Below are positions 9,072-51,902 of a DNA stretch of 64,000 nucleotides, one piece after another. The notes beneath the pieces are model-generated. The model was not told where the DNA came from and did not search any database. It saw nothing but the letters and a program-made list of their open reading frames with translations. Position 1 is the first letter of the stretch. Every line of letters starts with the position of its first letter. A program made the translations under genes and the position numbers. The DNA is from Candidatus Iainarchaeum sp. (lineage in GTDB: Archaea > Iainarchaeota > Iainarchaeia > Iainarchaeales > JAGVWC01). The DNA lies in assembly GCA_018304465.1 (NCBI GenBank), contig JAGVWC010000012.1:999-64998 (forward strand). The letters are read 5' to 3'.

Positions 9072-9082
9072 GATGACAATGC

Positions 9083-10321: not shown

Positions 10322-10331
10322 GGAATTTTGT

Positions 10332-11750: not shown

Positions 11751-11764
11751 AAAAAAGGGTTTGT

Positions 11765-13481: not shown

Positions 13482-13582
13482 GGTCCAAAAAAAGGCATAA
13501 ACTGTTTATAAAAAAGTTTGATTGCCGTCGGGAATATTTAAATAGTCAGGCTGGATATTATCTGTGTTTTTGGCGGTTTGAA

Positions 13583-16500
13583 ATGGATTTAAACGATATC
13601 TCGGAAGCGGCGAAAAAAAGGTGGAAAAACGCCTCTTTGGCGGTCATGAACGCGTATTATTCCGTCGAGGACCGCTATTACGAATTTCTGGATATGGTGG
13701 ACGAAAAAATCCCGGTGTATTCGGCGATCGACCCGGTCGACCGGTTAGTTCCGTCGCTGGTGTTGTTTTCGGTGATCGGAATTTTGTTGGTCGGCGGGGT
13801 TGGTGTCTGGATTTTCGGCGGTTTTGCGCCGCAACCGAAAAATCCGGGTACGAACGGACTTGCGCTTGAAGCGATTTCGAATTCGCTTGATTTGAATGAC
13901 ATCGATCCGTCCCGGGCGCCTCTGCGATCGAACCCGACGAGTAACCGGAACGGTTCGAACCGTGATCCGACTAATCCTTTGCCGGACGCGGCCAGCGTCA
14001 AGACGTTTTCGCTCGTTTTTAAAAACAAGGAAACAAACACCTTGATCACCAATCATACGGTTTCTTTTTCAGCGTCGTGTTCTCCGCAAGGAAATCTTTC
14101 TCCGGAAGAAACAACGGTAGGTTCGATCGCGGTTCGAATGCCTTCGACGTGCCAGACCGCGAATATTTCGGTCGGGTCCGAAGGATTTGAAACGTATTCG
14201 GAACGGTTGGCGTACAAGGACGCGGGGTTCGGTTCCAAAACCATTGAATTGTATCCGTTGGTCGCACCGCCCCAAACGGCTTTTTTCCTGACCGTCAAGG
14301 TGCAGAATCCGGATGGTTCGTCCGTTCAAAACGCGTTGGTGCGGATTCTCAAAAAAACCCAGAATTCAAACGAGTATCTTTCTTCGGTCGGCGAGGAAAC
14401 AACGAGAAGCGACGGAGTGGCTTCGTTTTCGCTTAACCGCGGCGGATACGTGGTGTCCGCGTTTGACTTGAACAACGGTCGGTTTGCATTCGGCGAGTTT
14501 TCGATCGAAGGCGCGGACAAATCGATTCAGATGACGCTGGATCAAAACGGGGAAGCCAAAGCGGTTTTTCTGAAAGTCGTCGAGTCCGGAACCACGGAGC
14601 CCGTCGGACTGGCCAGCGTAACGCTTTTTTTGGGTTCCAGACTTTTGTTTGAAGGCGCGACGAAAGCCAACGGGGAATTCTTGCAAGTGCTCGTTCCTCC
14701 AAGCAACCCCCAAAACGCGCGCGCCGTGATCCGCCGCAGCGGTTTTATCACCAAGGTCGCGGATGTTTCGTTCGTAAATTTCAGGAATCCAACCACGCAA
14801 ACCATCGGATTGACGCGGATGAACGCCAACAATTCCGCGAGGCTTCTCTCGCACGCTGCGGACGCCAAAGACGCTTCCCCGCTTCCGGAGACCCGCGTCA
14901 ATGTGTTCCATTCACAGTTTCATATTCCGTTGTTTGGAAACGGGTTGCTTTCGAACGCGGACGGAAACGTTTTGTTTGACGGTTTGCCCGCGGGAAAAGT
15001 GGACGTGACGTTTTCGCATGGCGGTTTTTTGGATTCGAACGTATTGAACGTTTCTCTTTTGGAAGGAAGAACCGCGTTTGTGCCGCACGCGTTGTCCGTG
15101 GGCAAAGGACGTTTTATTCTGGAAGTCCGGGAAGGCCAAAACCGCACTCTGGTGGACGGCGCCGTGGTCGAAGCGTTTGACGGATACACGGGTTCTTTGC
15201 TGTCAAGCCATGTCACCGAAACAGGAGTGGTGACGATGGATAATCTTCCGGTGAACCACAGCGTGTATTTCAAAATTTCTGCGAGCGGTTTTTTGACGCA
15301 GTTCACGGCGTTGTTTACGGTTCCGGACCAGTCGACTCCGCGTTTGCTTGTGATCTTGACTCCGGAAAACGCGATCGTGTCGAATCCGCAACTGGTCACG
15401 GGAATGATTTGGGAATCGGATCGGCAAACCGCGGCCAGGACCCTTGCGCCGGGAAAGACGTATTGGATTACGTTTCGCATTTTGATTCCCGCGCAAAAAC
15501 GCCTGCTTTCGACGAAGTTGTTCGTGCAGGACGATTCTTCCAATATCCAGATCGAAAACCTGGATTCGCCGTGGATTCCGATTGAAACCGTTTTTTCGGC
15601 GCCGCCAAACTCGAATCCTTACATACCGGGAACCCCCGTTGGCCCGAACGCGTTTTCGGACGAGGGAAAAGATTCGAAGCAATTGAATGTGTCGTGGGGG
15701 GATCTTGACGGGGGCGATTATGGTTTTTTGGTCAAAGTGACGTTTCCTCAAAACGCAGTCGGAACCCAGCGGTTAAAGTTCGGAATCAAAGGAATCGAAT
15801 CCGGTTCCAATGCGCCGGTTTCTTCGCAAAGCGAACAGACCTGGACGTTTGGACAGATTATCTGCACGACGAACTGCACGGGTCAAGACGCGATTTCGTG
15901 GACGGTATTCGTGGCCCCGAAAGGCGAAGCGCGTCCGAATTCGGGAATCGGAGCGGCGGATTTTTCCATTGAAAAAAACAAGGAGTATTCCCTTTGGTTT
16001 TCCGCGTTCAATAGCCGAAGCGCGTCGATTAGCGGCGCGAACATTCGTCTCGAAGGAGATCCCTTGTTTCGCCTTTCGGATCCGGGAAAAACCCTCGGAG
16101 ATGTCGTGGTGGCCAACCAGTTGATTCAAGCGGGAGAAACGTATTCGATTTCGGCGCCGATCTCGTTTTTGGCGACGGAGTCGAGCAATCACGCAAGACT
16201 CCGGCTCGTGATCAATGAATTGGATTCTTTTGTGGACGGAAAAAACCATGATTTTTTCTTTGATGTTTCAGGCGACCGGGAACTGGAAGCGGAGTTTTTA
16301 AGCGATCCGTTTTCGAAAACTCTGGTGGTCAAGGTCGTGGATTTTCGGACAAAACAGCCCGTGAAAGCCGCGTTGGTGAAATACAAAATAAACGCCGCGG
16401 TAGGACCGATCGCGTCTCCCGACCAGACCGCGACCACGGACGACGAGGGGTTCACCGTGTTTTCGAATTTTTTCTTAAGCCTAAGCGACGCCGCGGCGTT

Positions 16501-19344: not shown

Positions 19345-19411
19345 GGTTTTTCGGCCATAAAGCAATCTTTAAATACGGGGTCGGGGCTATTCTTGGTGGC
19401 CACGGTTCGGT

Positions 19412-22400
19412 ATGATTCTGACGGATCTATACTATAAAATAGAAGACAAATATTACGCCTTTTTGGACATGCTAAACCAGTATGTTCCCGTATACAAGGT
19501 CATCGACCCGATTGACAAGGTTTTTCCATCCTTGATTCTTTTTTCGGGTTTGTTCGTGATCGGAATCGCGGTCATTGTCGCATGGGTGTTGTCTTCTTCG
19601 TCCGCCTTGCCGGCGTACATTTCGGTGGTAAACGAAGACGGATCCGCGTTGACGAATGTTTCTTTTTCATTGTTGCTTGACGGCAATTCCGTGGAATTGT
19701 CCACGGGAGAAAGCGGCACCGCGGTGGTTTTGTTGAAAACCGCGCGTTCGGACGCGTCGATTTCGGCCAGTATTGAAAATTACGAACCCGTCGACGCGAA
19801 AAACATCACGTTGGTGGCCGGCGAGTATTACAAACTGCAATTGGCGCTTTCGGGTCCGCGAAACGATTTTCCGATCGTAATTCAGTTCATTGACGAATCC
19901 AGCGGCAACTTGATTTCGGGAAAATCCGTGACGATTTCGTTTTCATGCCAGATCGGAGACGCGCCGTCGTCGAAATCCACGCGAAACGGCGAAGTGACCG
20001 TTGAACCGCCCGCGGCGTGCGGGACGCTTACCGCCAAAGACGTGACGGTGACGGGTTTTGAATCCGTGCATGATTTTGAGATTTCTCCGGGAACCAACCG
20101 CAAGGTTCAGATTTCATTAAAGCCCACGGCGCTTCCGCCGGCCAAAAAAGGCGCGTTGTCGGTGCTTGTGGTTGACGACGCAGGGCGGCCCGTAAAAGAC
20201 GCGGAAGTCGTGGTCATGGATGGCTTTGGAGTAACGCAGGCCACGCAGCTTTCAAGCGGGCTGGGAATGGCGTCGTTTTCGCTTAACGAAGGATCGTATC
20301 AAGTCCAGTCGAAAGTGACGCGCGAAGGAAGGTTTTCGGACAAGAACACCGTGGTCATTCGCCAAGACGAAACCACGTCGCTTACGCAAAACATCGGAGC
20401 GATTCCAAACGACAAGAAAGTATTGTACAAATTCCTGGATTCGAATTCTTCGGATCCCGTCGAAGGCGCGTCCGTTTGGCTTAGTCAGGGAACCAGCGTG
20501 CTTGTTTCCGACGGAAAAACCGATTCCGCGGGTTTGTTCGAGCAACCGGTGCAAGACCTGAATGGTTCGTATCATTTGGTGGCGGATCACCCCAATTACG
20601 TGCTGGGGATTTTTCCGAATGTGGTGCTTGTTAAAAAGTTCGATTCGAACGCGCAAGTCGCGCGATTGACGCGGCTAAAAGACGACGCGGCGGGAAATCC
20701 GCAAAATTACGGAAAAGTGTTGGTGACGGTGTTTGACGAGGATCGAAAATTGATCGACAACGCGACGATCCAGTTGTTGCGGTCCGGCGTGGATGCTCCG
20801 ATCGCCGAAAAGAAAACAGGCAAAGACGGAAACGTTTTGTTTTCGCGTTTGCCCGCGGGAACGTATCTGGCGCGGGCCATTAAAGAGGATTCGAACAAAA
20901 CCAGCGAATCGTTTTCTTTGGCCGTGGGGCAAATCCAGGAAATCGAAGTCGCGTTGGCGTTGGCCAAACGCGTGTTCCGTATTACCGCGCTGGGCGGTTC
21001 CAACCACGTGGTCAAAATCAATAACGCGGATGTGGAAGTGAAGATTTTTGATCCCGTCGCCCAGAAGTTTGTCAAAAAACAAGACGGAAAAACGGGTTCG
21101 ACGGGCGATTTTAAAACCGGCGGCTTGCCGGTGGGTTCCACGGTGGCTTTTTTGGTGAGCCGAAGCGATTATTTGTCGTTTCATTCCGGTCCTTATGTGG
21201 TGCCGCCGGGAAAACTTTCGGATGAAATCAAACTTGATTTTTGGATGTATAAAAAAGAGGATCTGGCCGCGGACCAACACATCAAGATCGAGTTTGCGGA
21301 TTTGATGGATGCGTCGGGAACCGTTCGACCCAACGTGCTTGACGCGGGAAAAGAATACTGGGGTGTTTTCAACATCACGTTGCGGGACGGCAACTTTGAC
21401 GATCCCAAAATCAGCGTGCGCGCCGGCCCCAATGCCTTGCCCTTGGCCACTCAAAACAATATTTTTATCGAGAACGCGGAAGCCGGAGCGGTTCTAGGCG
21501 AAGTCTCGTTTTCTTCTTCCTTAAATCCGTCCGATGTTTTCGCGACGCCGGAAGGAGTTTCTTCGAATAATCACGCCAAATTGACCGTGGTCACATGGGA
21601 TCGGTTGTCGCAGGGAACCTTTCAGGCCAAAGTCAAGTTTTCGGTAAAAGAAAGCCTTCCAAAAGGAAGCACGGTGGAATTGCATTACCAATTGGCGGCA
21701 ACGTCTGCCACAGGAACCAAAACCACGCCTGATTCGACGCAGTCGTTTACGGTTGGAAGCGGCGTGTGCAAGCAGAATTGTCCGACCTTGTTTTGGGCGT
21801 TTTATTATTCCGCGTCCGCGGACGAACCGTGGGTTCCGCTGGACATCACAGCGCCGCCGATGTTGCTTTCGAATCAGCCGTACCGGATCGGATACGTGAT
21901 TTACAATTTGTCGCAGACCGATTACACGGCAAGCGTTTCGTTTGAAAACAAGGATACTTTGTTGGGCCTCGGAAGATCATCTGGACGCACGCAAACCAGC
22001 GGGTTTTCCAACCAGTTGATTGCGGCCCAAGGATCCGTTGAAACCGGGTTAAGCCAGCCGCTTTCGATCCTGCCGGGAGTCGGAACCGGCGGATTGCTGG
22101 AAGCCCGCGTTGCCACCACCCCGGATTTGACGGAATTGTCCGCGACGCGAAAACAAATTTTGTTTTCGATTCAAGGCGCGCGAAACCTCTTGATGGATTC
22201 GATGTATGACGGCGCCCGTCTCACTGTGATTGTGCGTGACCAGTTAACGAACGAACTCGTCAAAGACGCGTTGATCGAAGTGGGGGAAATCAATGACGGA
22301 AGCGTCGCGACGGGGTTTTCGAAACCCGTGCAATTTTCTACGCTTTCGGCGGAAAACGGAGTCGCGTCTTTTTCGCTTGAACTGGGCGAAAACGAATCCG

Positions 22401-22882: not shown

Positions 22883-22887
22883 AAAAG

Positions 22888-25821
22888 ATGGATCAGAAAG
22901 GAATTTTGCCGTTGTTGATCGCGGGCGCGATCATGTTGATTCTGGGATTGCTCATGACTTTTCTGATGGCAATCATCGGCGTGTCGAGTGCCCAAGACGC
23001 GATTTGGTGCAAGATCATGAAAGACCAGTACAACGCGGAAGACATGCAGGTCTGCAGCGATACGATTATCGAAGCGTTGCAATCCACGGGACAGATTCCA
23101 CAGGATCAGATCAAACTGACGGCCAATCAGGCGTTAAGCGTTCATTGTACTTTTGACGTTTTGGGCGGAGCCTACGGAAGATTCGATCCCTGGCCGCCCA
23201 TTACCGACGACTGCGGATTACGAGGCGCGGTGTGCAAAGACCGCGACGCGGCGGGAGAATTGATTCCCGCGGTATGCGAAGTCGCGAATCCACCGGCCGG
23301 CGTGACCCGGATCGGCGTTGTTTTGGGGGATCAATCGTGTCCGGAAAGCTTTGTGGCCATCGGACCCGCGGCATTCAAGTCTCCGGACGGACAGAATTAT
23401 TGGATTTGCAAGCAAATGGGCGAAGCGACCGTTGCCGCGATTGAAGCGCCGGTTTCACCCAACGGTTCCGCGGATTCCGCATGCAGTGGCGCAGGGTTTG
23501 TTCCGCTTTCAACCAATCCCCCGGCCGCCACGTTGTTTACGGGAAGTGACGGCGCGTCGTACCAATTGTGCCAAAAAACCGGCACCGGACAGATTTTGGA
23601 TATTGTTTCCGTTGAAAAAACCGCCGCGGACACCTCATGCGGCGACTTGTCTCTTTTAACCTCGTTGACAGGCGGAGACGACAAGGAGTATTTGGTGTGT
23701 TTTAAGCAACAAGCGCAGCAAGGGAGTTGTAACTGCGCGACGACCCCGGAACAACTCGCCGCTGTGTCGTGTAGTACGGATCAATGGGCCACGGTTTCAC
23801 CGGAATGCCAGGCGGTTTGCCCGCAGTTTGGAACCGCGTGTACGGAGGATCCCGCAAAACCCATTTGTAATGCGGGCACGCATGCGTGCGTGAGTTTAAG
23901 CGATTATCCCTGCGGACAAGAAGTCTTGGGTTCGCCCGGAGTCAAAGGCGTGGGTTGTGCCGCGGGCCAGGTCTGTAATCTCGAATCAAGCGTATGCGTG
24001 GATGTCGGAGACCAGACCACGGGCGCGTTGTCGCGTCCCAAGTACGCGTTTGATGTCGCCAACACCCAGGACACGGCCGACAGCGTGAACGCGTGTTTTG
24101 GATTCGGAACCGAAGCAGAAACCGTTTCTTCCGCCGGAAAACTCGTGTCCATCGCGCTTGGAATGCCGTCGGAAGACAATGCGAAATTCAGGCTTTCAAA
24201 CGAAAAACTGCTCAGTGGCCTCGGAAAAGGAGGCGTACTGCCGTTCTCGATATCGAACGAATCGTTGAGCGGATCGTACAATTACGCGTTGATCAACGTG
24301 TCCGACACCGTGTTAAAGTCGGACGGAACACTGGGATTGAAAACCGAAGAATTTTTAGTGAAATTACGGGCGCGCGACGCAACGGTTTGTTACAGCGAAG
24401 ACGGTTTGGAGGGCCACACGGGACCCAGTATGGCACCGCGTCTTCGGTATACGTGGTCGTTTGAGGATTCAACCGGAATCGCGATCGATTCGTGCGACCA
24501 GAAAAAAATCGATGGTTCGCCGAACACGGGTTTCATTTATTGTGACGCCACGCAGTTTTCCATTGAATTAAGCAAAAAGCTTAGCCAAATTATTTCGACC
24601 GCGGAAGAAGGACAACCCGTGGCGGCGGATTCGCTGTTGCTTGATTTTAACGCGTATTTGATGCCGGATGGTTTTTCAAGCGATTTTAGGAAAGATTTCA
24701 ATTTTGTGCAGGAAAACGTCGCGTTTTTCAGTCAAAACGACGCGTACAAAAAAATCGCGTCGTATTTTACGAACGAAAGCCGGTTGGTGTTGCCGACACG
24801 GGTTCCAAAGCTTGGAAAATACCGAGTCGTGATCACGCAGGGGTTTGCCCAGGGAAAATCAAACGTGTTTTTCGAGGACAATTTTCCGATCGCCAATCTG
24901 GTGTTGACCATGACGTTGCTTGAGGAAAATCTTTCGAAGAATCCGCTGTATTTCATGCCGGTGGATTACAAAATCGGAACCGTCAAACGACCCGGCGAAA
25001 ACGCAGCGGGCCGCAACGGATACGGAATCGGATTAAGCGCGCCGATGAACGCAAACGCAGAAGTGGGCATTGACGCGGTAACGAGTACCGGCGGATCCGG
25101 TTCGTTTGGATCCGAAAACCAGACCAATTGGCTTTCGAGTTTGGACGCGCCAAACCGCGGAATCGTGCTCGAGTTGTCTTCTCCCACTGTGGATGCGCCG
25201 GGATTGTTTTCATGGAGTATCAGCAAGGCGACGCCGGTCATGATTTCAATTCCGCTAAAAAGCGGCAAGGCCCAAGCGTTTTTTGAATTGATGCAAAACG
25301 AATCCAGCGTGAATACCGCGGGAAAACCCATCGGGCTTTGGACCGGCGCGGGTTCCACCGCGGGCGATCCATGCGCCGACTTTTCGGGTCAACCCTTGCT
25401 TTCAAACGCTTCCGAGCCTTCGCCGGTTGCGGGCACTTGCGCAGAGACTTCCGCGGATGCGCGCGGTTTTTTGCTTTCGGGTAACAAGGAAGGCAAACAA
25501 GTGTTTTACAAAACCGTGATTTATACGCCGGCGGGAAATTTTTCCTTGCGAAAAGCCGCGGGTTGTGAAACCGCGTTTGAAATTCTTTCTCCGACCGACT
25601 TGACGAATGCAAGCCAGTCCACGGTTGGTTTGGGTTACTTTGATTTGCAATTGTCTTCTTTGCAAATGTATTCGGGTACGGGGACCGCCGTGTTTTATTG
25701 GAACCGCGACGTGGTGTTGGATGCCTTAGGCCACCCGCAGAATTTCGTTCCGCGACCGTTGTTTGACCAAACCAATTTGAGCGGTTTTTCCACGGTGACC
25801 GCATGCACTCAGGCAACTTAA
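22888..25821 (+). CDS. Envelope protein, module B (unit 2).
   Basis: 977 aa counted from the ATG at 22888, which lies 5 nt after the module A stop and is preceded by GGGTGA. Has a 27-aa hydrophobic N-terminus, a Cys-rich stalk and the B-core motifs 'TGPSMAPRLRYTWSF', 'IYCDATQFSI', 'DGFSSDFRKDF' and 'LYFMPVD'. Confidence 0.85.
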   Translation: MDQKGILPLLIAGAIMLILGLLMTFLMAIIGVSSAQDAIWCKIMKDQYNAEDMQVCSDTIIEALQSTGQIPQDQIKLTANQALSVHCTFDVLGGAYGRFDPWPPITDDCGLRGAVCKDRDAAGELIPAVCEVANPPAGVTRIGVVLGDQSCPESFVAIGPAAFKSPDGQNYWICKQMGEATVAAIEAPVSPNGSADSACSGAGFVPLSTNPPAATLFTGSDGASYQLCQKTGTGQILDIVSVEKTAADTSCGDLSLLTSLTGGDDKEYLVCFKQQAQQGSCNCATTPEQLAAVSCSTDQWATVSPECQAVCPQFGTACTEDPAKPICNAGTHACVSLSDYPCGQEVLGSPGVKGVGCAAGQVCNLESSVCVDVGDQTTGALSRPKYAFDVANTQDTADSVNACFGFGTEAETVSSAGKLVSIALGMPSEDNAKFRLSNEKLLSGLGKGGVLPFSISNESLSGSYNYALINVSDTVLKSDGTLGLKTEEFLVKLRARDATVCYSEDGLEGHTGPSMAPRLRYTWSFEDSTGIAIDSCDQKKIDGSPNTGFIYCDATQFSIELSKKLSQIISTAEEGQPVAADSLLLDFNAYLMPDGFSSDFRKDFNFVQENVAFFSQNDAYKKIASYFTNESRLVLPTRVPKLGKYRVVITQGFAQGKSNVFFEDNFPIANLVLTMTLLEENLSKNPLYFMPVDYKIGTVKRPGENAAGRNGYGIGLSAPMNANAEVGIDAVTSTGGSGSFGSENQTNWLSSLDAPNRGIVLELSSPTVDAPGLFSWSISKATPVMISIPLKSGKAQAFFELMQNESSVNTAGKPIGLWTGAGSTAGDPCADFSGQPLLSNASEPSPVAGTCAETSADARGFLLSGNKEGKQVFYKTVIYTPAGNFSLRKAAGCETAFEILSPTDLTNASQSTVGLGYFDLQLSSLQMYSGTGTAVFYWNRDVVLDALGHPQNFVPRPLFDQTNLSGFSTVTACTQAT

Positions 25822-25893
25822 GGGAAAAACACGAAAAAAAGTCGGGCCAATAATTATATACGGGAAATACACTTAGATATTCAATCGAAAACA

Positions 25894-28800
25894 GTGGTTT
25901 TGATGGGTATTGGCCAAAACCTGAAGGATTTTTACGTTTCGCTTGAAGACGGCTATTACTCCGTGCTCGACAAGGTTTCAAACACCTTGCCGGTGTATAC
26001 GGTCGTGGATCCCGTGGACCGGGTTTTTCCGTCTTTTTTGCTTTTGATTCTGCTCGTGATCGCCGGCATCGGTTTTCTGACTGTTTCTGGGTTTGGCCCT
26101 GTCGTCATCGGCGGCGATCAGGTGTTTGTCAATGTCGTCGTGGAAAACCGGGTGGGGGACAAGCTTCCCAACGTGCCCGTAACGCTCGTGATTAACGGCG
26201 TCTCGACGGACAGGCAAACGGATCAAGATGGGTTTCTTTCGTTTTCGGCTCCTAAAAATTCTTCGGGCAAATTATTGATTTCCATCGAAGGCTATCAGAA
26301 CGTGGATGAAAACTTTTCGATTTCGGATCAAAACGTGGCCAAGCGATTGGTGTTGCGTCAAATCGAATTGCCCAAGACGCGCGTGATCCAGTTCGCGGAT
26401 GCCGCGGGACGCGCGATTATCGGAACCACGATTACCGCGAAATTCACGTGTTCGAATACCGAAGCCAAACTGGAAAAAGACACGTTGTCGTCGGATTCAT
26501 TGGGAAAAATATCGATCGTGGAACCCGCCAACTGCGGTTCATTGCAAGCAACCGTGTTGGGTCCCGCCGAGTACGCCCAAACGCCTTTTTTGGTGAACCA
26601 GCCGTCGCCCGTGATCCGGCTCGAAGCCGTGCAACAGCCCGTCGGAAACGCGCGTATTCGCGTCGAGGACGAACAAGCCGATTTGCTTTCGGATTTGGCG
26701 GCAAGCGTGGTGTTGTACAATGATTCGGGCGAAGTCAAGCGATTGTCACTCGAAAACGGGTTCGCGCAGTTTCGCGATGTTTCCGTTGGATCGTATTATG
26801 CCACCGTGACGCCGACTCAGAACGGTTTTGGTTCGGGAAAAAGCGCGTCGTTTGAAGTCAAGGAAGGCCAGTTGGTGCACGCGACCATCAAACTGTCTAA
26901 AAGCGTCCGGCAAAACCTGACGATTACGGTGCTGGATCTTGAATCGAATCTGTCCGTCAAAGACGCCAAAGTGGTGCTGCAAAGCCGCGGAACGGGAAAA
27001 GAATTGTATTCGAAGGAAACAGATGCAAGCGGCAAAGCGGTTTTCGGTTTGACGGATCCGGAAGAATGGCTTGTGCAGGCAAGCTTGGCGGATTATTATC
27101 CCGACGAAAGCGTAGTGTCGGCGACGGATTCTTTCCTTACGTTAAAACTGGAAAAAATTTCGGGAGAAAACACGGGCATCGTGAATGTTTTCGTAGTGGA
27201 TGAAAAAAACAAGCCGGTTGAAAACGCCAAAGTGCGTTTGCGGTACAAGGAAACGGATTCGATCGCGCCGTACGACGCGTTGTTGACGGATGTCAACGGA
27301 GAAGCCAAGTATCGCGGGGTTAAAGACGGAAAAGAATTGTACGGTTACGCCGAAAAGTTTCCGGCAACCGGCGTTTCGGACGCGGTTTTGATTCAGAAAT
27401 TAACGCCAAACCAGATGAAAGTCAAGATGGAAATCGGCGACGCCTTGATTTCGGTGTCCGCGGTGACCGAAGACAACGAACCCATCGTGGAATCAACAGC
27501 GGAAATATTTGATTCCACCGGGGAACGCGTGGGCGAGATTCCGCTTTCCAACGGCAGCGGTTCGCTTTCCGTGAAAGCCGATAAACGCATCTATGTTGTG
27601 GTTTCAAACCCCGATTTTTTCGGTTATCAAAGCGAAACATTCCAATTGTATAAAGACAAGAAAGTTCAGGTTGTTGCGGCGTTGCCGTCGCGACTCGTGA
27701 GCGGCGGTCCGAAGGTTTCCTTGGTCGGCGTGTTTGACGCATCCGGCAAAACCGTGGACCAAATGGAAGCGGGCAACAACTACATGGTGAGGTTACAGTT
27801 GAAAATCCCGGAGGATTCGTCGTTTGAACAAGCGGGAATTCATTTTAGGGTCGGAAGCCAAGCCTTGATGGAAAACGACCAGATCGTCATCAAGGGAATC
27901 AATGTCGCCAACGCGGCGTTGGTCCAGGGGTCCACGTTTAATCCGCCGAAAGGGCAAGTCATTGATTTGAACCCGGCGAATCAGTCGTTTGGCGACGCCA
28001 AATGGGCCAATATCGTGTTTTCAAACCCGGTTCCGCAGGTGTATAACGTGGCCGTGGATGTACGCGTGAAAAACACGGCGACATTAAACGCTCCGATTCC
28101 GATGTTTTATCGCGCCTGGGGCAAAACCAACCAAAGCACGATGGTGCGCGATCCGCAGGACAACGAATTGGGCGAATCCTTTCAGACCGGAAGACTGCAG
28201 GAATTATATGCCAACGCTTATCCCGTGACGAGATTTTTTGAAGGCGCGGGAAGCGAATGCGATGATTACGTTTGTTATTCGAATGTCCGTTTTTTTGACC
28301 ACAATCAGGGACTCTATATTCAAAGTCCGTTTGAACTGGTCAACAACCGGGATTACGAGTTTTCGTTTTCCTTGACGAATTCTTCCCAAGCCAATTTTTC
28401 GGGGGCTTCGTTCCAGTTTTCGATTTTAACCGACGGAAAAGAAAGCCGGGATTACGTCGTTTCGGATTACCGTATTTCGAACGCGTCCGCCCAGCCGTTT
28501 TCCGGTGGAAGCATGGCCAACAACAAGCTTGAAATCGACGCCGGAAGCATGGTGGTCAACGCGGGAATCAGCGGGTCCGTAAAATTCCGTCCCACGCGGA
28601 TTCTGCCCGGATCCATTCTGCTCAAAACCGTTTACCAAGGCGAAATCGTGAGCCTTAAAGAAATTTCGTTCGTCACGATCGCGGATAAAAAACTCGTGAT
28701 TGGTCTTTCGCCTGATCCGATTCCGGCGTTAATCGAAGTTCCGGCCGTGGTGTCGGTTGCCGAAGAAGGAAACGAAGAACCGGTTTCGGAAGCGGTCGTG

Positions 28801-31800
28801 ACATTGATCCGTGAAACCCGTGACCGCGTGCGGCAAAACCAAACCAAGATGTCAAACACTTTGGGAAACGCCGAGTTCGTGATTGCGGCGTCGTCTCCCG
28901 GAACCCGCATTATTGTCGAAGCCCAAAAACCAAATTTTATCTCCGAGCCATTGGTTCGCGTGGTCGATGAAAACGTTTTGCTTTTTTATCCGAACGAATT
29001 GAGTTTGGCGCTCAAAACCCAAAGTCAGCGCGAAGCCGAAGCCAAAGTAACGATTGAAAACGTGACCGCGACCCAGATCCGTTTATCCAAACTCCAGCTT
29101 GTTGGCGATTTCGCGGGCTTGTTGGATCAAACCAAAATCAACGGGTACTTGTCCACCTTGATCGGAACCAGGGTAGATCCGAATTCCACCCAAGAAGTCG
29201 TTCTCTTAAAAGCGTTTTTGTCTCCGACCGCGACGTTGTTTTCGAACCAGTCATTGGACGCGTCGCTTGCCATCGAAGCCGTGGATTCAAGATTGAATAC
29301 CAAGTGGGTGTTTTCGGTTCCGGTCAAGATCTCCGTTTCGATTGACGGCATGCCCGAAAACGAATCGTGTCTTTCGATCGACGAACCCCTTTGGGAAGAT
29401 TCAAGCCTGGAAAACAATTTGCAGCATTCGTTTACGTTGACCAACAATTGTAAAGTCGCGGGAAGCGCGCTTTCGCTTCGCGGTTTGGCCAGCCAAGTGT
29501 TGTGGAATGATAACGCCGTTGGAAACGTGGAATTGACGTTAACGGACGCGTCAAACCCGAATAATTCCATCACCCAAGTGCTGCGCGACAATGCGTGGTC
29601 GCATTTGTTCGATCAAATGTCCGCGGACGGCGTGTATTACGGCGTTCTTACGTTTGTGCCCAAAAGCGGAAAAACAGGTCAAGAAGCCCGGTTTACCGTG
29701 GACTTTGCCGCACAAACCCAAACCGAAAGCGGAGCCAAAAAATTGTCGACCAAAGAACCCATTACCGCCAGTATTCTGATTACGAATTTGCAGTTTTGCA
29801 TGCAGTATTCCGCCACGGGGGCGGGCACCCGAAACGTTGCGGAGTTTCCGAATCCCTTAAACGATTCGGAGTCCACCGAACCCAAACCGCCGGATTCAAA
29901 TCCTTCGAACGGAACCGTGACCGCAAAGCCGGTGAATGAATTGGTTTCCGCGACCGTGCAAACGGCTACGTCCGATGATGAATTTACTACGGTCAAACTG
30001 GGCACCGGAAACGACGCGAAGTTATTGATTGACATGAGCCGTTGCGGTGAACTTCCCATTGACATCGTGTTGTGCAAAGGAGACGATTATTGCCGCGGCG
30101 GAACCGAAGACGGCGGAATTCAGGTCAAGCCATTGCAGTTTTCGCTTTCGCCGGACACGCCTGTTCGCGAAGTCACGGTGTCGCGCATGGAAGTGCCGGG
30201 AATCTACGGTTTGACCGTGTGGGCGCGTACCAAAGGACGCAACTACAACAAAGTCGCGACCATCGACGTGTTGGTGGATCCGCGCACCGAAGACGGACAG
30301 TATTTTTCGCTTTCCAAATACGAATTGTTCATCAAAGGAACGGGAACCAAAGATTCGGTCGTGCTCAAAAACAGCAATTACGTGACCACGACCACCGTGG
30401 ACGCGCCCGCCAGTATGTGGGGACAGAAAAAACAACCCAAAGACAACGGCATGGGTTCCATGTTGCCTTTGCTTGGGGCCGCGATGCTGCCGCAAATGCT
30501 TCCGCCGCTGCTCGATGGAATGCAAGGCGCGTTTCAAGGCGCAAAAGATTTGTCCAATAAAAACCTGGGGGCTGTAAAAGAAGCTCAAACAGCCTGTAAA
30601 AAAGCGGATGCCGGAGTTGAAAAATTAAACAAAGGATTTGATAAAGAATTTTCAGATCCCGCTGGAATCATTAACAAAAGCAAAACCGACTTGCAGGGAG
30701 AATTCGCGGACGATAAGGGTTTAACCAGCCAATGTGAAACATTTCAAACCATTGTCAACTCGTGTCCCACGGGATGCGTTAGTTCATCTGGAGTTGACGA
30801 CTTGATGACCAAATGCAATGCGGCGGCGGATGGACTCAAAAAAAGCGTGGACGATTCACTATTGAAAGAAGGAGAAAACGGAGGGGTTCTTTCCAATCTG
30901 GATTCCCAACGTGACATCTTATCCAAACTTGACTCGACCGCGACCACCACGTGTGGCGCGTTGCCCACTGGAAAATTCGATAAAGGCGCCGGTATTTCAG
31001 ATCAATTCAAATTGCAGGCAGAAACCTGCGGCACCCAATGCCAAGTGTTAAAGGACAGCATTACTGGACCCAATGGACTGGATATGTTCAAAAAAACGGT
31101 TGGGGACGCAACCAAAGAACTTGGCGACTACAAAAAAGAGTTATCCGATCTCTCGGACGTGTCGAATAATCAAGCGCTTTCCGAAATGGCGAGCGCCAAA
31201 GTCACTGCGTTTACGGAGCATATGACCGAACCAAGCGACGTACAATATTGTACTCCTTGTTATGCCAAAGCAGACGAAGCGCTTTCCACATTTAATACTG
31301 CGTATAAGGAAAAAATCCAGACCGTGAATCAGAAAGTGGACACGATTGAAAAACAATTGTCGGACCAATATGGCGAAAACGGAGCCGCGTATAAAGAGGC
31401 GCAACAAGGGTTAAGTGACGCTCAAAAAAGCTGTGGACTGGGACAACAAGCACTAACCGACCAATCAAAAGCCACGCCGGTGGTATCCGATGACGCGGGA
31501 ATGCGCCGGTTCGATTCGGGCGCCTTAAGCAGCATGATGTCGCAAGTCGCCATGCTGGGTTTGATGTCGGGTGCAATGGGAAACGGCTTCGCGTCCGATC
31601 CCACCGAAGATGCTCCGCAAGAACACGTGCAACAACAACAGCAAGTGTTTGCGATTAACCTGCCAAGCGATGCGCGATCGACGACAATGAACAACGAAGG
31701 AATCGGCGTGTCCATGGATGCCGAGAACGTCAAGGTCATGGGAAAAACGGATTTGCGCGACCAGCGTGTGCCCGTGATTTTCGAAAACGCGGGTCTCGAA

Positions 31801-33714
31801 GAAGACAAGCCCACGTACGCGGTGATGACTATCGACGCGGTGGAACACGTGTTTGACGCGGTCACCAAGATTCCGTTCGGGGATTCGCGTTTCCTGCAAA
31901 CCGATTCGTGGGGACTAGGCCAGTTTTTCGGAAAACAACAGAATTACAACCAGAAATTCCATTTAAGATTCGTTTCAAAAGACACCTTGGTGGAATTGCC
32001 GCCGGTCATCGGAGACCAGTTCGCGTGCACGCAAGGCGCAATGGTGGGACAAACCGGACCGGATGCGTTGCCGAGAATCAAGTTGAAGTGGAACTGGACC
32101 GATATTACGATGGATTCGTGCGACGCGAAAAACCCGGAGTTCATTTACTGTGACGCCACCCAATTCTCCATCATGATGACCAAACGCTTGCAGGCCGTCA
32201 ACGACTTTTTGGCGGCAAACCCGGGTATTCCATGTCCCACGAACTGGCTGGAAGAACAAGTGCAAGCCGAGCTTGATCCGTTTAACGAATACTTGGTCGC
32301 GTTGGATTTTAGAGAATTCCAAACGAGCGATTACGTGACGGGCTGTTGGCTGCCCAAAACCACGGACATGTTCGACAACAAATCCGCGTTGGAGTTTTAC
32401 GTGGATGACTACAAGGAAAACATCCGTTGGACCGACCAGGTGCCGAATTCGCAGGCCTTGCACGAACTCTTGTATTTCGACGCGTATTTGATCCAGGACG
32501 GATATACGTCCGACTTTAGACAAGACTTCGCGCATTATTTTTCGAATGTGTCGTTTGCGGATACGCCTTCGTTTTTCAACCAGGATCCGACCGGTCACAA
32601 TTGGAGCAAGTATTTTTCGTTGGAAGGAATCACGTTCACGCAAAAATTCACGGAAAACGACCAGCTTCCAACCAGCGGCTTGTACCGCGTGGAAACCGTC
32701 GCGGATTTCAAGAACGATGACTGGGCGTTTTTTGACGGACAAACCTTAAACGCGTCCATCAATGTCGGTTTGCTTGCGTTACAACAGAGTTCGCTTAACA
32801 GCGTGTTTTATTATCTGCCGTTTGACGGCGAAGTTGGAACCGAAGGACAAAGTTTGGATCGCCAGGGATACGGAACCGGATACGAAATCGCGAATCATCA
32901 AGCGGTGCAGATTTCAAGACAAAGCGGAATCACGACGTTGGCCAACGCGGGATCGAATCCCGTGCAAGTCGTGGAAGTATCCACGGGTGGATCGTTTGAT
33001 TCCTTAAACGCGTTTGCGTCGCAACGCGGATTCATTTTGGATATTGAAAACAAGGACTTGACCAAGAAAGTCTTGCGGTTTACGCCAAGTCTTGCAACCC
33101 CGATTTTGCTGAAAGTGACGCAAGGCGCGACACCCGAACCATTCGGCGCGTTTTATACGATCCGAAACGCGGATATTCCGCAGAACCTGGGTCAAAGCGC
33201 GGCGTATTGGAGCGGTGCCGGCGCGTGTTTGGACTTTTCAGGTAACCTGGTCGCGGACGCGTGGGATTTCCGCCCCGACCGCAAAGCCCAGTCATCGGAC
33301 CGGATTCCGAACTGGACGATTTCGTACGGCATTGATTGGTCCGCGGCGGAAACCGCCGGAGACGTGTTCTTGAAAACCGTCATGTATTCGCCGTTAAACG
33401 GTCGTTTTTCGATTAATGCCGCGTCCGACAACGTGTTGATCGCAACGCCGGACCAGCCGTTTGGAAAAGCCCAGGATCTTGCGGGAGTATCCACCATGGC
33501 GTTTAATCGCCAGGGAACCACGGCCCAAGACCGGATTACGGCGTTGGATGATTTGTTTGAATTGGTTTTCGAGCAAAAAGTGTGCGTGACCAATACGGGG
33601 ATTCGATCCAGTTTCTGGTGGAACCCCAAAACGGTTTTCAACCAGGCGGGCGGATCCGGAAGCAGTATTTCGGATATCGAAGCCACGTTGCAGTCCGGAA
33701 AAACCTGCCGATAA
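25894..33714 (+). CDS. Giant envelope protein, fused modules A-linker-B (unit 3, 2606 aa).
   Basis: The N-terminal 'FYVSLEDGYYSVLDKVSNTLPVYTVVDPVDRVFPS' plus TM is A-like. The C-terminal 'TGPDALPRIKLKWNW...IYCDATQFSI...DGYTSDFRQDF...FYYLPFD' is B-like. The start is GTG at 25894 or ATG at 25903. Confidence 0.85.
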   Translation: MVLMGIGQNLKDFYVSLEDGYYSVLDKVSNTLPVYTVVDPVDRVFPSFLLLILLVIAGIGFLTVSGFGPVVIGGDQVFVNVVVENRVGDKLPNVPVTLVINGVSTDRQTDQDGFLSFSAPKNSSGKLLISIEGYQNVDENFSISDQNVAKRLVLRQIELPKTRVIQFADAAGRAIIGTTITAKFTCSNTEAKLEKDTLSSDSLGKISIVEPANCGSLQATVLGPAEYAQTPFLVNQPSPVIRLEAVQQPVGNARIRVEDEQADLLSDLAASVVLYNDSGEVKRLSLENGFAQFRDVSVGSYYATVTPTQNGFGSGKSASFEVKEGQLVHATIKLSKSVRQNLTITVLDLESNLSVKDAKVVLQSRGTGKELYSKETDASGKAVFGLTDPEEWLVQASLADYYPDESVVSATDSFLTLKLEKISGENTGIVNVFVVDEKNKPVENAKVRLRYKETDSIAPYDALLTDVNGEAKYRGVKDGKELYGYAEKFPATGVSDAVLIQKLTPNQMKVKMEIGDALISVSAVTEDNEPIVESTAEIFDSTGERVGEIPLSNGSGSLSVKADKRIYVVVSNPDFFGYQSETFQLYKDKKVQVVAALPSRLVSGGPKVSLVGVFDASGKTVDQMEAGNNYMVRLQLKIPEDSSFEQAGIHFRVGSQALMENDQIVIKGINVANAALVQGSTFNPPKGQVIDLNPANQSFGDAKWANIVFSNPVPQVYNVAVDVRVKNTATLNAPIPMFYRAWGKTNQSTMVRDPQDNELGESFQTGRLQELYANAYPVTRFFEGAGSECDDYVCYSNVRFFDHNQGLYIQSPFELVNNRDYEFSFSLTNSSQANFSGASFQFSILTDGKESRDYVVSDYRISNASAQPFSGGSMANNKLEIDAGSMVVNAGISGSVKFRPTRILPGSILLKTVYQGEIVSLKEISFVTIADKKLVIGLSPDPIPALIEVPAVVSVAEEGNEEPVSEAVVTLIRETRDRVRQNQTKMSNTLGNAEFVIAASSPGTRIIVEAQKPNFISEPLVRVVDENVLLFYPNELSLALKTQSQREAEAKVTIENVTATQIRLSKLQLVGDFAGLLDQTKINGYLSTLIGTRVDPNSTQEVVLLKAFLSPTATLFSNQSLDASLAIEAVDSRLNTKWVFSVPVKISVSIDGMPENESCLSIDEPLWEDSSLENNLQHSFTLTNNCKVAGSALSLRGLASQVLWNDNAVGNVELTLTDASNPNNSITQVLRDNAWSHLFDQMSADGVYYGVLTFVPKSGKTGQEARFTVDFAAQTQTESGAKKLSTKEPITASILITNLQFCMQYSATGAGTRNVAEFPNPLNDSESTEPKPPDSNPSNGTVTAKPVNELVSATVQTATSDDEFTTVKLGTGNDAKLLIDMSRCGELPIDIVLCKGDDYCRGGTEDGGIQVKPLQFSLSPDTPVREVTVSRMEVPGIYGLTVWARTKGRNYNKVATIDVLVDPRTEDGQYFSLSKYELFIKGTGTKDSVVLKNSNYVTTTTVDAPASMWGQKKQPKDNGMGSMLPLLGAAMLPQMLPPLLDGMQGAFQGAKDLSNKNLGAVKEAQTACKKADAGVEKLNKGFDKEFSDPAGIINKSKTDLQGEFADDKGLTSQCETFQTIVNSCPTGCVSSSGVDDLMTKCNAAADGLKKSVDDSLLKEGENGGVLSNLDSQRDILSKLDSTATTTCGALPTGKFDKGAGISDQFKLQAETCGTQCQVLKDSITGPNGLDMFKKTVGDATKELGDYKKELSDLSDVSNNQALSEMASAKVTAFTEHMTEPSDVQYCTPCYAKADEALSTFNTAYKEKIQTVNQKVDTIEKQLSDQYGENGAAYKEAQQGLSDAQKSCGLGQQALTDQSKATPVVSDDAGMRRFDSGALSSMMSQVAMLGLMSGAMGNGFASDPTEDAPQEHVQQQQQVFAINLPSDARSTTMNNEGIGVSMDAENVKVMGKTDLRDQRVPVIFENAGLEEDKPTYAVMTIDAVEHVFDAVTKIPFGDSRFLQTDSWGLGQFFGKQQNYNQKFHLRFVSKDTLVELPPVIGDQFACTQGAMVGQTGPDALPRIKLKWNWTDITMDSCDAKNPEFIYCDATQFSIMMTKRLQAVNDFLAANPGIPCPTNWLEEQVQAELDPFNEYLVALDFREFQTSDYVTGCWLPKTTDMFDNKSALEFYVDDYKENIRWTDQVPNSQALHELLYFDAYLIQDGYTSDFRQDFAHYFSNVSFADTPSFFNQDPTGHNWSKYFSLEGITFTQKFTENDQLPTSGLYRVETVADFKNDDWAFFDGQTLNASINVGLLALQQSSLNSVFYYLPFDGEVGTEGQSLDRQGYGTGYEIANHQAVQISRQSGITTLANAGSNPVQVVEVSTGGSFDSLNAFASQRGFILDIENKDLTKKVLRFTPSLATPILLKVTQGATPEPFGAFYTIRNADIPQNLGQSAAYWSGAGACLDFSGNLVADAWDFRPDRKAQSSDRIPNWTISYGIDWSAAETAGDVFLKTVMYSPLNGRFSINAASDNVLIATPDQPFGKAQDLAGVSTMAFNRQGTTAQDRITALDDLFELVFEQKVCVTNTGIRSSFWWNPKTVFNQAGGSGSSISDIEATLQSGKTCR
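32065..32190 (+). repeat. 126-nt segment that is near-identical to 40179-40304 (4 mismatches).
   Basis: Direct base-by-base comparison of the two stretches. Both encode 'ALPRIKLKWNWTDIT.DSCDAKNP.FIYCDATQFSIMMTKRL'. Confidence 0.9.
33541..33627 (+). repeat. 87-nt segment that is near-identical to 41637-41723 (3 mismatches).
   Basis: Direct comparison. Both encode 'ALDDLF.LVFEQKVCVTNTGIRSSFWWNP'. Confidence 0.9.
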
Positions 33715-33747
33715 TATATATTCCAAACCATTGCAGAGAGTTCGAAT

Positions 33748-34437
33748 ATGAAAAGACGATCACGGACACCAACGCCCCCCATCCAAAACCGATCCCGGCA
33801 AAAAGTAGGGCGAAGAACGGTGTTACGAACGGTGGTTTCGGCGGCGATCGTAATGCCGTTAGGTTGCGGTTTAAAGATGCCGCGGACCGAAAGAATTTCC
33901 CAGGTAAAGGAGTATGGCTGGCGGCATCGCACCGGAAATCTTCGGCGGTTAATTGTTTCCCAAAAAGTGTACCCAAAAGTGCCGGTTGAATATTATTTGG
34001 CTGAAATTGCGCGACTGAGTGCAAAAGCAAGCCGGCAAAAGCTGTCCCCGCAAAGCAACGTTTCTCCCGAACTTGAATTAATTACCCCTCTTTTTTCGGC
34101 CGAAGCATTAAAGTGGATGGTGAAAAGAAAACACGTTTCCCAGATTGTTGCCGATGAAATTAAAAAATACCAGAAAGGGGTTCCCAAGCAACGGATTCCA
34201 GTGAATCTATATTTGACCGCTCGCTCGGAATGGACGCGGTATGTGCATGAAAACCTAAAAACCAGGTCTTTTTTTACGGAGCTTCAATGGACTCCAAAAA
34301 AGCAGTTGGATTTTTTGCTGGTGGCAATGAAAGATTGGAATTCGTATCAGCGCGTGATACAGCAAGGACATATTCGAGATGCGGCATCCGCCAAGTATTT
34401 ATCGGAATTAAAGGCTTATGCCGAGACATTTCAATGA
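33748..34437 (+). CDS. Hypothetical basic protein (229 aa) between the two fused giant genes.
   Basis: ORF with an Arg/Lys-rich N-terminus ('MKRRSRTPTPPIQNRSRQKVGRRTVLRTVVSAAIVMPLGCG') and a helical-looking remainder. No family recognised. Confidence 0.5.
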   Translation: MKRRSRTPTPPIQNRSRQKVGRRTVLRTVVSAAIVMPLGCGLKMPRTERISQVKEYGWRHRTGNLRRLIVSQKVYPKVPVEYYLAEIARLSAKASRQKLSPQSNVSPELELITPLFSAEALKWMVKRKHVSQIVADEIKKYQKGVPKQRIPVNLYLTARSEWTRYVHENLKTRSFFTELQWTPKKQLDFLLVAMKDWNSYQRVIQQGHIRDAASAKYLSELKAYAETFQ

Positions 34438-34520
34438 CAAAAAGGTTTTCCTAGGCCAAAACGCTTTCTTTTGTAACCTTAATATAGGAGAATTCAGTAT
34501 TCTATACGAAGGTTTTTTGG

Positions 34521-41851: not shown

Positions 41852-42436
41852 TTGAATTTTATGAATGTTTTGGCTGTTTTTCTCGTAATTTTCGGTTTGG
41901 TATTGTCCGGATGCGTTTCGATTCCGCAACCCGAAAATAAAGCGATCGAAATCGCGAACAAATCCACGGAAGGCCGCGCTTTGTTCGTGATGAGAGATGC
42001 GTTTTCGAAAACGCCGCAATGTACGGTTGAAGAATACCTGCAAGTGGTTGGAATCGTGAATCCGATGCTTGCGGGATTGTCTCCGCGCGTGCAGTTGATC
42101 ACGGATCCCGCGCAAGCGCAGGTATTGGTGGCCACGGCCAAGGAGTGCAATCCGATGGTTTTGATCAGACCAAGCGACCCGGCAAACAACAAAGCATTGG
42201 TTTCGTATTCGATTTCGACGCCTTCTGCGTGTCCGGTCAGCGACCTGGCGGGAAAAACGCGTTCCGTGCTTGAAATCGAATCGGATTTTTCCACCCAGTC
42301 ACCCAGAATCGTTTCGGGGGAATTGAAGGAATCGGATGAAAAAACCCTTCAAGGGGTTTTGCCGGCCGTGGGTTTGATGGGAAATTGTGCGGCGCCCGTT
42401 TTGATGCAATCTCAATCGGTTCCAATGTTTTCATAA
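41852..42436 (+). CDS. Putative lipoprotein (194 aa).
   Basis: Signal peptide with lipobox 'LVLSGC' and four further Cys. Starts 41 nt after the last giant gene on the same strand. Confidence 0.6.
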   Translation: MNFMNVLAVFLVIFGLVLSGCVSIPQPENKAIEIANKSTEGRALFVMRDAFSKTPQCTVEEYLQVVGIVNPMLAGLSPRVQLITDPAQAQVLVATAKECNPMVLIRPSDPANNKALVSYSISTPSACPVSDLAGKTRSVLEIESDFSTQSPRIVSGELKESDEKTLQGVLPAVGLMGNCAAPVLMQSQSVPMFS

Positions 42437-42450
42437 AAAAGGTTTTGAAT

Positions 42451-46301: not shown

Positions 46302-46324
46302 ACAGTTTAGGGAGGAGATCGATA

Positions 46325-51889: not shown

Positions 51890-51902
51890 GGATGAAAGGA
51901 TT

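Follow-up and report, generated by a model that had tools for sequence, protein, structure and literature searches.

A tandem array of four paralogous units encoding giant membrane-anchored two-ectodomain proteins in Iainarchaeia

The array and its two modules

The DNA analysed here, referred to below as the window, is a stretch of 64,000 nucleotides (nt) from contig JAGVWC010000012.1 of Candidatus Iainarchaeum sp. Positions 13583 to 41810 of its + strand are occupied by six long consecutive open reading frames (ORFs), named O1 to O6, with a small one, Os, between the fifth and the sixth; together they take up 28,228 of the 64,000 bases (44% of the window), in agreement with the layout described in the first-pass annotation, a model's reading of the sequence. 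Our results showed that this array consists of four paralogous units of a giant, membrane-anchored, two-ectodomain protein family specific to the Iainarchaeia (Diapherotrites, DPANN).

All-against-all BLASTP comparison of the giant proteins revealed exactly two homology classes, corresponding to the two module types, A and B, that had been proposed for them. Class A is formed by O1, O3, and the N-terminal ~1400–1520 amino acids (aa) of O5 and O6, and class B by O2, O4, and the C-terminal ~700 aa of O5 and O6, so units 1 and 2 are split into separate A and B genes and units 3 and 4 are A-linker-B fusions, also as proposed. For module A, O1 matched O3 with an E-value of 1e-40 over ~1180 aa, O3 matched O5 at 6e-24, and O5 matched O6 at 9e-102 over 1581 aa. 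For module B, O2 matched O4 at 8e-39, and both matched the C-termini of O5 and O6 at 1e-15 to 1e-19. The B cores of O5 and O6 are 48% identical over 706 aa, and the array paralogues overall show 19–30% identity.

The ORF lengths given in the first-pass annotation were recovered, apart from two that depend on the start codon chosen: the O4 frame is open from a TTG at 22813, which makes 1002 aa the length of the longest ORF (989 aa according to one gene caller), and O5 starts at ATG 25903 according to the gene callers, giving 2603 aa. Within the split units, A and B genes are adjacent, and they are predicted to be translationally coupled, as had been suggested: the stop of O1 and the start of O2 share an ATGA overlap, and O3 and O4 are separated by 5 nt, with GGTGA preceding the O4 start. 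A TATA-like hexamer, TTTAAA, precedes the O1 start by 46 nt, and comparable elements, also consensus matches, lie 43–48 nt upstream of the starts of O3, O5, and O6 (19368, 25855, and about 34478). Their constant distance suggests four putative transcription units, with these boxes as candidate promoters. As for Os, it has a basic N-terminus and a single hydrophobic segment, showed no match in Pfam, NCBIfam, or PHROG and no homologue in 38 related loci, and is probably not part of the giant-protein system.

Proteins of the window were found on seven to nine independently assembled contigs (NCBI, JGI, ENA, Logan), with nine contigs each for the O2 and Os proteins. The contigs inspected in detail carried O1-O2-O3 and O4-O5-Os-O6 in the same order as the window, and the remaining contig places showed mostly identical neighbouring genes. 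In ENA ERZ28563625 scaffold_150 (L039/L041), O6 was found broken into 1732 and 701 aa, at a point equivalent to ~39700 of the window. A natural split of O6 was considered for this scaffold and rejected, as the break consists of a stretch of N, its flanks are duplicated, and foreign filler is present, corresponding to a scaffolding error. The same error creates a false "split" state of O6 in the protein databases. This scaffold would be the one point in favour of regarding the whole array as an assembly artefact, generated by collapsed or duplicated repeats; however, its break is an N-gap with duplicated flanks, nine contigs were found for each of the O2 and Os proteins, with the window order kept on those inspected, and paralogues at the identities given above are too diverged for collapse or mis-joining. 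Such an artefact is extremely improbable and is excluded as far as possible short of read mapping.

Table 1. Positions of the array genes, their parts, and a promoter-like element in the window
Feature	Positions	Strand	Basis
TATA-like hexamer TTTAAA, 46 nt upstream of O1 start	13537..13542	+	consensus match only
O1, split module A, 1135 aa	13583..16990	+	ORF map, BLASTP, Pfam, hydropathy
O2, split module B, 785 aa	16987..19344	+	ORF map, BLASTP, alignment
O3, split module A, 1156 aa	19412..22882	+	ORF map, BLASTP, Pfam, hydropathy
O4, split module B, 977 aa from ATG 22888	22888..25821	+	ORF map, BLASTP
O5, fused A-linker-B, 2606 aa from GTG 25894	25894..33714	+	ORF map, BLASTP
O5 module A, aa 1–1520	25894..30453	+	alignment, repeat HMM
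O5 linker, aa 1521–1900	30454..31593	+	hydropathy, periodicity
O5 module B, pre-core aa 1901–2029, conserved core aa 2030–2606	31594..33714	+	alignment, AlphaFold2
Os, 229-aa orphan ORF between O5 and O6	33748..34437	+	ORF map
O6, fused A-linker-B, 2429 aa	34521..41810	+	ORF map, BLASTP
O6 parts: module A aa 1–1400, A/Q-rich helical linker aa 1401–1740, module B aa 1741–2429			

Modules A and B and the junction between them

Every A module has one strong N-terminal transmembrane helix (Kyte–Doolittle (KD) hydropathy 2.6–2.8), located at ~aa 56–78 in O1 and ~aa 41–60 in O3, and a run of beta-sandwich repeats behind it. The assignment of these repeats to a carboxypeptidase-regulatory/PEGA-like type was supported by the Pfam family PF13620 (CarboxypepD_reg), which passed its gathering score of 32.3 bits in the four A modules (65.1 in O1, 88.5 in O3, 44.2 in O5, and 61.7 in O6). 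A repeat hidden Markov model (HMM) trained on the family placed four N-terminal copies in O1 between the transmembrane helix and ~aa 580, against five each in O3, O5, and O6, and one further copy at ~aa 890–1018 in all four modules. The repeat carrying a conserved Cys pair was caught by this HMM in O3 alone; when it is counted, the N-terminal run comprises five repeats in O1 and six in the others. By protein, the repeats span aa 229–573 and 904–981 in O1, aa 60–498 and 933–1009 in O3, and, in O5, aa 76–578 (five by HMM) and 947–1018 (one), the latter protein having extra beta-rich domains. In the four-way alignment, both Cys of the pair are invariant (C166/C190 in O1, C179/C203 in O3, C186/C214 in O5), and the peptides quoted in the first-pass annotation are present.

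No Pfam or PDB match was obtained for the A regions from ~aa 600 to 900 and from ~aa 1010 to the end, and O5 and O6 have ~300 aa of extra domains in distal A compared with O1 and O3. The module closes with the end domain that had been described as containing "CGE", which is true of O1 (C1003...C1046-GE), O5 (C1302...C1384-GE), and O6, whereas O3 reads CAE (C1027...C1062-AE). Weak Pfam matches to MG3, MG4, SpaA, Big_1, and SdrD_B overlap the PF13620-type beta-sandwiches; among the MG matches, only those of MG4 in O1 (29.7 versus 24.7 bits) and O3 (24.9 versus 24.7) reached the gathering score. These matches and the "CGE" of the last A domain are the features shared with bacterial alpha-2-macroglobulins (A2M). 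A thioester/A2M reading of "CGE" was nevertheless rejected, because the Gln of the CGEQ motif is absent (the four modules read CGEA, CAEA, CGEL, and CGEL) and no TED/A2M Pfam domains were found, in addition to the overlap of the MG matches with the CarboxypepD_reg repeats. Eukaryotic NOMO (PF13620, with a weak match of PF23193) is similar to module A in its tandem PF13620-type beta-sandwiches on a single transmembrane helix, forming a beads-on-string spacer, but the repeat fold alone is shared: the anchor of NOMO is C-terminal, and distal A, linker, and B have no counterpart in it.

Upstream of the transmembrane helix, O1, O3, and O5 carry an acidic Tyr-rich motif of ~45 aa, YY..ED.YY..LD......PVY..IDP.D...PS (13583–13720, 19412–19540, and 25903–26040, respectively). 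This motif, predicted to be cytoplasmic, is absent from O6, whose N-terminus is short, and both N-terminal types recur across the family. The strict core form of the motif was found in 35 of 100 complete A-module N-termini, although the alignment consensus suggests that it is commoner, and a word-indexed search of low sensitivity did not find it outside the A-B family. The motif may provide a site at which a cytoplasmic partner docks.

The description of module B as a hydrophobic N-terminus followed by a variable stalk and a conserved core held for both split B proteins. O2 comprises an N-terminal signal anchor, a Cys-rich stalk at aa 19–185, and pre-core plus core at ~aa 200–785, and in O4 a transmembrane/signal anchor is followed by ~350 aa of Cys-rich stalk, in which a ~50-aa repeat occurs three times, and by the B core (~aa 396–1000 of the 1002-aa ORF). 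The two stalks contain 7–8% Cys and cannot be aligned with each other. The signal anchor of O2 contains LILLILMGCCS with a lipobox-like LMGC, where the Met at -2 is non-canonical with respect to the lipobox [LVI][ASTVI][GAS]C, and O4 has no such Cys.

The B core, of ~580 aa, is common to O2, O4, O5, and O6. Its signature (YCDATQF; F.AYL..DG...DF..DF; FYYLPFDG.VG...R.GYG; ATP; W.GAG.C.DF; PDR; FWWNP; and eight conserved Cys) is present in the four proteins, with minor substitutions in O2 and O4, and its residues are 85–100% conserved in an alignment of 143 diverse cores, in which D58, D173, D178, D182, D418, and D433, R294 and R349, and W37, W39, Y277, Y297, W410, and W547 are invariant or nearly so. 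In windows of 100 aa, O5 and O6 are 45–63% identical in B versus 17–35% in A, and across orthologues and paralogues B is the best conserved part, and variation is greatest in the repeat stalk and, for the O5 lineage, also in the linker.

As the first-pass annotation had anticipated for the B core, the linker, and the N-terminal motif, no named family was recognised for any of them in Pfam, NCBIfam, PDB, and PHROG searches, nor for distal A in Pfam, NCBIfam, and PHROGs. Searches of PDB sequences with single sequences and with a 46-sequence profile gave nothing below an E-value of 0.5. An AlphaFold2 model of O5 aa 2030–2606 built from 46 sequences reached a predicted local distance difference test (pLDDT) score of 93.1 and a predicted TM-score of 0.88, and is helical on its N-terminal side and beta-rich on its C-terminal side; a model from 11 sequences remained at pLDDT 64 and its matches were meaningless. 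When the pLDDT-93 model was compared by Foldseek with 350,542 PDB chains, none matched at E<=1e-3 (best E 0.059, TM-score 0.09), and the same model against BFVD gave nothing. The one suggestive match was a beta-sandwich of the adhesin CLIPPER (9ifr; 123 aa, probability 0.72, target-normalised TM-score 0.46), limited to one subdomain. Matches to flavivirus E were rejected as noise (E 0.04–0.4, probability 0.01–0.06, TM-score 0.04–0.06, root-mean-square deviation (rmsd) 25–31 A), even with the pLDDT-93 model, and the three-domain fold of class II fusogens/fusexins was not encountered in PDB or BFVD by Foldseek. The B core therefore has no known relative in the libraries searched (Pfam, NCBIfam, PHROG, PDB, and BFVD), and these profile and structure searches returned no characterised S-layer or adhesin family for it. 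Being confidently modelled and devoid of a Pfam entry or a PDB or BFVD relative, it is a good target for structural studies and for defining a new domain family.

The conservation of the core could also point to a membrane-tethered exo-enzyme, in which B would be a new hydrolase or a carbohydrate-active or carbohydrate-binding domain and A would tether it within the pseudo-periplasm or at the cell surface. Asp, Arg, and aromatic residues that are invariant or nearly so, as in the 143 cores, are common in sites that bind or cleave glycans, and low-ranking Foldseek matches include carbohydrate-binding modules and glycosidase beta-sandwiches. However, these matches are non-significant (E >= 0.06, query-normalised TM-score <= 0.12), no enzyme family was matched by sequence or fold, a structural or Ca-binding role would explain the conserved residues equally well, and four giant paralogues would be an odd way to deploy an enzyme. 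We consider an enzymatic role improbable.

From the anchors, the conserved Cys, the Cys-rich stalks, and the N-X-S/T sequons (about one per 100 aa), we infer that A and B are extracellular. The envelope location proposed in the first-pass annotation fits the transmembrane anchors, the eight conserved Cys of the B core, and the Cys-rich stalks. Likewise, the absence of a PGF-CTERM or sortase signal noted there was corroborated: no NCBIfam match to PGF-CTERM, archaeosortase, or sortase signals was found, and there is no C-terminal hydrophobic segment, O5 and O6 ending in ...SGKTCR and ...SGTTCR. Known archaeal S-layer families (MSTP/DUF1608-type, SlaA/SlaB, csg) gave no match at E<=0.1 to the six proteins in Pfam and NCBIfam.

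The junction between A and B takes different forms. The linkers of O5 (380 aa) and O6 (294 aa) have a weakly hydrophobic, Met/Gly/Pro-rich segment at each end (KD 1.2–1.3) and an interior rich in A, Q, K, and D, with no Trp, little Pro, and 7–11 Cys. In O5, the first segment, H2 (SMLPLLGAAMLPQMLPPLL, Met/Pro-rich, KD 1.31), is followed by a K/D/A-rich region of ~325 aa containing all 11 linker Cys and then by H3 (LSSMMSQVAMLGLMSGAMGNGF). The linkers show a hydrophobic periodicity of 3.5 residues at 3.3–3.7 times the mean power (3.7 times in O5) versus 0.65 times in A, and are therefore predicted to be amphipathic helical. Three relatives of the O5 type (P0011, P0012, and P0014) have an extra insert of ~500–600 aa, rich in W, Y, G, and P, within the helical linker; it gave no Pfam match and brings the proteins to a total of ~3,100 aa.

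A second form was detected in 44 of 95 complete fused relatives, where the linker is short and includes a stretch of 45–60 aa (KD 1.6–3.0) in which a tight turn joins a Gly/Ala-rich helix to a very hydrophobic one, after which [DE]DPC...DY[VI]INL marks the start of B; ~60–150 aa precede the B core in these proteins. In Sec-dependent export, a stretch of this kind acts as a stop-transfer plus re-initiation hairpin. Proteins of this hairpin subtype would have both A and B outside, with B starting at the cell's own membrane and not at the tip of the A stalk. The split genes break exactly at the junction, A ending without a hydrophobic tail and B opening with an anchor. In a third subtype (P0118, P0139, and P0150), repeats of the type C..YC...C...CC..C lie between two GxxxG-like segments. 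Split, hairpin, and long-linker variants amount to a built-in experiment on how archaea may export and anchor two giant ectodomains.

Two large ectodomains per polypeptide with a hydrophobic hairpin between them are also found in viral glycoproteins: bunyavirus Gn-Gc is a glycoprotein precursor with an internal stop-transfer plus signal hairpin, and the split genes of the array would parallel its two products. By analogy, the array could encode a precursor-like membrane-fusion or insertion device, with A binding a receptor or partner cell, Gly-rich segments entering the partner membrane as fusion peptides, and the B head driving or regulating apposition, bridge formation, or fusion. The Gly/Ala-rich, moderately hydrophobic segments flanking the linker (GAVVGAIAGTLY and GALIGFIAG), the strong 3.5-residue periodicity of the linker, the split and fused states of A and B, which recall viral glycoprotein precursors, and the flavivirus E entries at the top of the Foldseek lists are in line with it. 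However, those flavivirus matches are noise (probability 0.01–0.06, TM-score 0.04–0.05, rmsd 25–31 A), BFVD gave nothing, half of the family has a strong 45–60-aa hairpin that is best read as an ordinary membrane anchor, and no sign of cleavage, trimerisation, or a host was seen. In addition, no structural similarity to class I, II, or III fusogens was found, B has no C-terminal anchor, and the family is cellular and chromosomal. A fusion device is thus very unlikely, although, if real, it would be a candidate for the long-sought cell-connection apparatus of DPANN archaea.

Relatives across the Iainarchaeia

An exhaustive HMMER search recovered 832 B-core clusters (50% identity), of which 529 reached E<=1e-30, whereas the word-indexed homologue search under-reports the family, with 8, 6, and 2 matches. 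Among the best 154 of the 832, 92 were complete fusions (1,949–3,251 aa, median 2,430 aa), 8 were split B proteins, two of them O2 and O4, 2 were split one domain earlier, and 52 were fragments. The split versus fused tally, which had been proposed as a check, thus gives 8–10 split against 92 fused forms, with the fused form as the rule, and shows fusion to be the default state, splitting being a derived or alternative one. No description of the A-B family was found in the literature, and the B core appears to be a new domain family within the known class of giant archaeal surface proteins.

In GTDB species genomes, 35 B-encoding loci were detected, all of them in Iainarchaeum or unclassified archaeal metagenome-assembled genomes (MAGs) but one labelled Micrarchaeota, and the nearest named relatives of A and B belong to "Candidatus Diapherotrites archaeon" MAGs. 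Most of the GTDB loci are tandem same-strand arrays of two or three consecutive giant genes. The family therefore extends well beyond one genome: it is large and Iainarchaeia-wide, and tandem arrays are its norm. The deep-branching loci L001, L035, and L036 showed a three-gene form, A-M-B, in which M (~600 aa; L001 8158–10005, L035 6285–8018, L036 6096–7973) has a signal peptide, a beta-rich body, the motif C..GG.C..GE.C....CC...C, and a C-terminal transmembrane anchor, and gave no Pfam match.

In a neighbour-joining tree of B cores, genes from different genomes clustered by their place in the array, upstream with upstream and downstream with downstream, so the paralogues seem to be old and to have kept their order. 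O5 and O6 are sisters in a "downstream-type" clade together with L004_g2 and L005_g1, while O2 and O4 lie on deep branches, with O4 clustering with the gene that precedes L004_g2. The "fourfold paralogous" character claimed for the array is correct as to the four units, but it understated their age, as they fall into old clades with conserved order.

Neighbours of the related loci are housekeeping genes (PolB, GluRS, M17 aminopeptidase) and sometimes a TrmB regulator, with no islands, and the array of the window sits between a 2-oxoacid dehydrogenase cluster and RNA polymerase genes. A small protein of ~150–200 aa with three predicted transmembrane helices and a charged tail is encoded downstream of the array in L008 (18201–18959), L009, L010, L011, L021, L024, and L025; in several of these seven genomes it follows the last giant gene immediately. 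Neither this protein nor the other recurrent array neighbours of no assigned family are present in the window.

Possible role of the array and its surroundings

Our preferred interpretation, held tentatively and short of being probable, is that the array encodes a constitutive, multi-paralogue envelope scaffold or coat. Module A would be anchored in the cytoplasmic membrane by its one transmembrane helix and project as a rod of ~seven transthyretin-like beta-sandwiches plus further beta-rich domains, with a length that we estimate at tens of nanometres. Module B would have its own anchor or hinge in three forms, namely the signal anchor of O2 and O4, the hairpin of about half of the fusions, and the long Cys-containing helical linker of O5 and O6, followed by a disulfide-stabilised globular core of ~580 aa whose predicted fold is unlike solved structures. 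A would then serve as spacer and stalk and B as a conserved interaction head, and the old, order-conserved paralogues, if co-expressed, would build alone or together a constitutive coat or spacer layer constituting the outer face of the cell.

Two-component coats are known in archaea: the Sulfolobales S-layer consists of the stalk and anchor SlaB and the canopy SlaA, and tetrabrachion of Staphylothermus has a helical stalk segment. Like them, the array would combine a membrane-anchored stalk with a separately encoded or processed outer protein, both large, beta-rich, and glycosylated, and the helical segment of tetrabrachion would have its parallel in the O5 and O6 linkers. However, there is no kinship in sequence or fold, the anchor of the array proteins is N-terminal and theirs C-terminal, B has its own anchor, and the array has four diverged paralogues that are 2–3 times larger.

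The scaffold is favoured because of the lineage-wide retention of the family, the conserved order of its paralogues, its housekeeping surroundings, the greater conservation of B than of A, and the membrane-adjacent position that B would have in the hairpin subtype; a most-conserved B also fits a head with conserved contacts. Moreover, Iainarchaeota have been reported as possibly free-living (PMC10936187), which favours a general envelope role over attachment to a host.

Several points weigh against the scaffold reading. According to a preprint (bioRxiv 10.1101/2024.05.28.596244), a Diapherotrites MAG encodes a separate S-layer protein of 1039 aa; if this is confirmed, the giants may lie within or outside an ordinary S-layer and not form the lattice. 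The Cys-rich repeats of the third junction subtype must be extracellular, so the hairpin topology cannot hold for every member, and in the long-linker subtype, including O5 and O6, the hydrophobic segments at the two ends of the linker do not reach the transmembrane threshold; topology was drawn from Kyte–Doolittle hydropathy only. The neighbour-joining tree carries no support values, and the GTDB scan used a single peptide pattern, so that coverage of every Iainarchaeia genome is not implied. Finally, an anchor with a repeat stalk and a head is, by analogy, also the classic architecture of an adhesin.

An adhesin or cell-contact apparatus, in which the A stalk would present B or the distal A domains to a partner cell, particle, or polymer and the paralogues would differ in specificity, is accordingly the main rival reading, though on present evidence a rather unlikely one. 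Membrane anchor, Ig-like repeat stalk, and globular head are typical of giant adhesins; the weak Pfam matches of module A include the adhesin stalk domains SpaA, SdrD_B, and Big_1; and the sole half-plausible Foldseek match, again for one subdomain, is to the adhesin CLIPPER (9ifr). Many DPANN archaea are episymbionts, and tandem giant surface genes occur in symbionts, e.g., Giant1-5 of Apilactobacillus kunkeei (PMC12863079). On the other hand, conservation in this family is highest in the head B and lowest in the stalk, which is the opposite of many adhesins; B of the hairpin subtype would begin at its own membrane and not at a stalk tip; and the conserved paralogue order, the housekeeping neighbours, and the possibly free-living habit of Iainarchaeota (PMC10936187) also speak against this reading. 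Among other giant surface proteins, SPEARE of Ca. Nanohaloarchaeum antarcticus (PMC6642349) and Giant1-5 (PMC12863079) are likewise very large, occupy a big share of a small genome, and have Ig-like repeat stalks, and the giant genes of A. kunkeei are consecutive, but their domain content is unrelated, and the A-B family is set apart by its unique B core, its confinement to Iainarchaeia, its conserved order, and its housekeeping setting.

The ~28 kb devoted to the array in a presumably small DPANN genome, together with the lineage-wide occurrence of such arrays, makes it likely that these proteins dominate the appearance and interactions of the cell. To our knowledge, the Iainarchaeia have no cultured member, and if the array forms a coat or a contact organ, its proteins would provide markers and antigens to visualise and enrich them.

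The genes flanking the array mark the window as archaeal. Among them, the region upstream of the array (6057–13198) contains a complete 2-oxoacid dehydrogenase cluster (E1alpha, E1beta, E2 with a lipoyl domain, and E3), and the same region includes genes for lipoyl synthase, lipoate-protein ligase (- strand), and RNase HII. Such a cluster is an unusual metabolic capacity for DPANN and agrees with reports of less reduced Iainarchaeota. Adjoining the array on its downstream side are two small genes (41852–42436 and 42385–42930) whose predicted products are membrane- or lipoprotein-like and match no family, and further downstream lie two genes for geranylgeranyl-reductase-like flavoproteins (42947–44185 and 45129–46301) and one for an Fe/Mn superoxide dismutase (46232–46936). 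Beyond these, the genes of RNA polymerase, with subunit B split into B''/B' and A into A'/A'', were located at 50411–57601, and those of aEF-2 and aEF-1alpha at 59470–63083.

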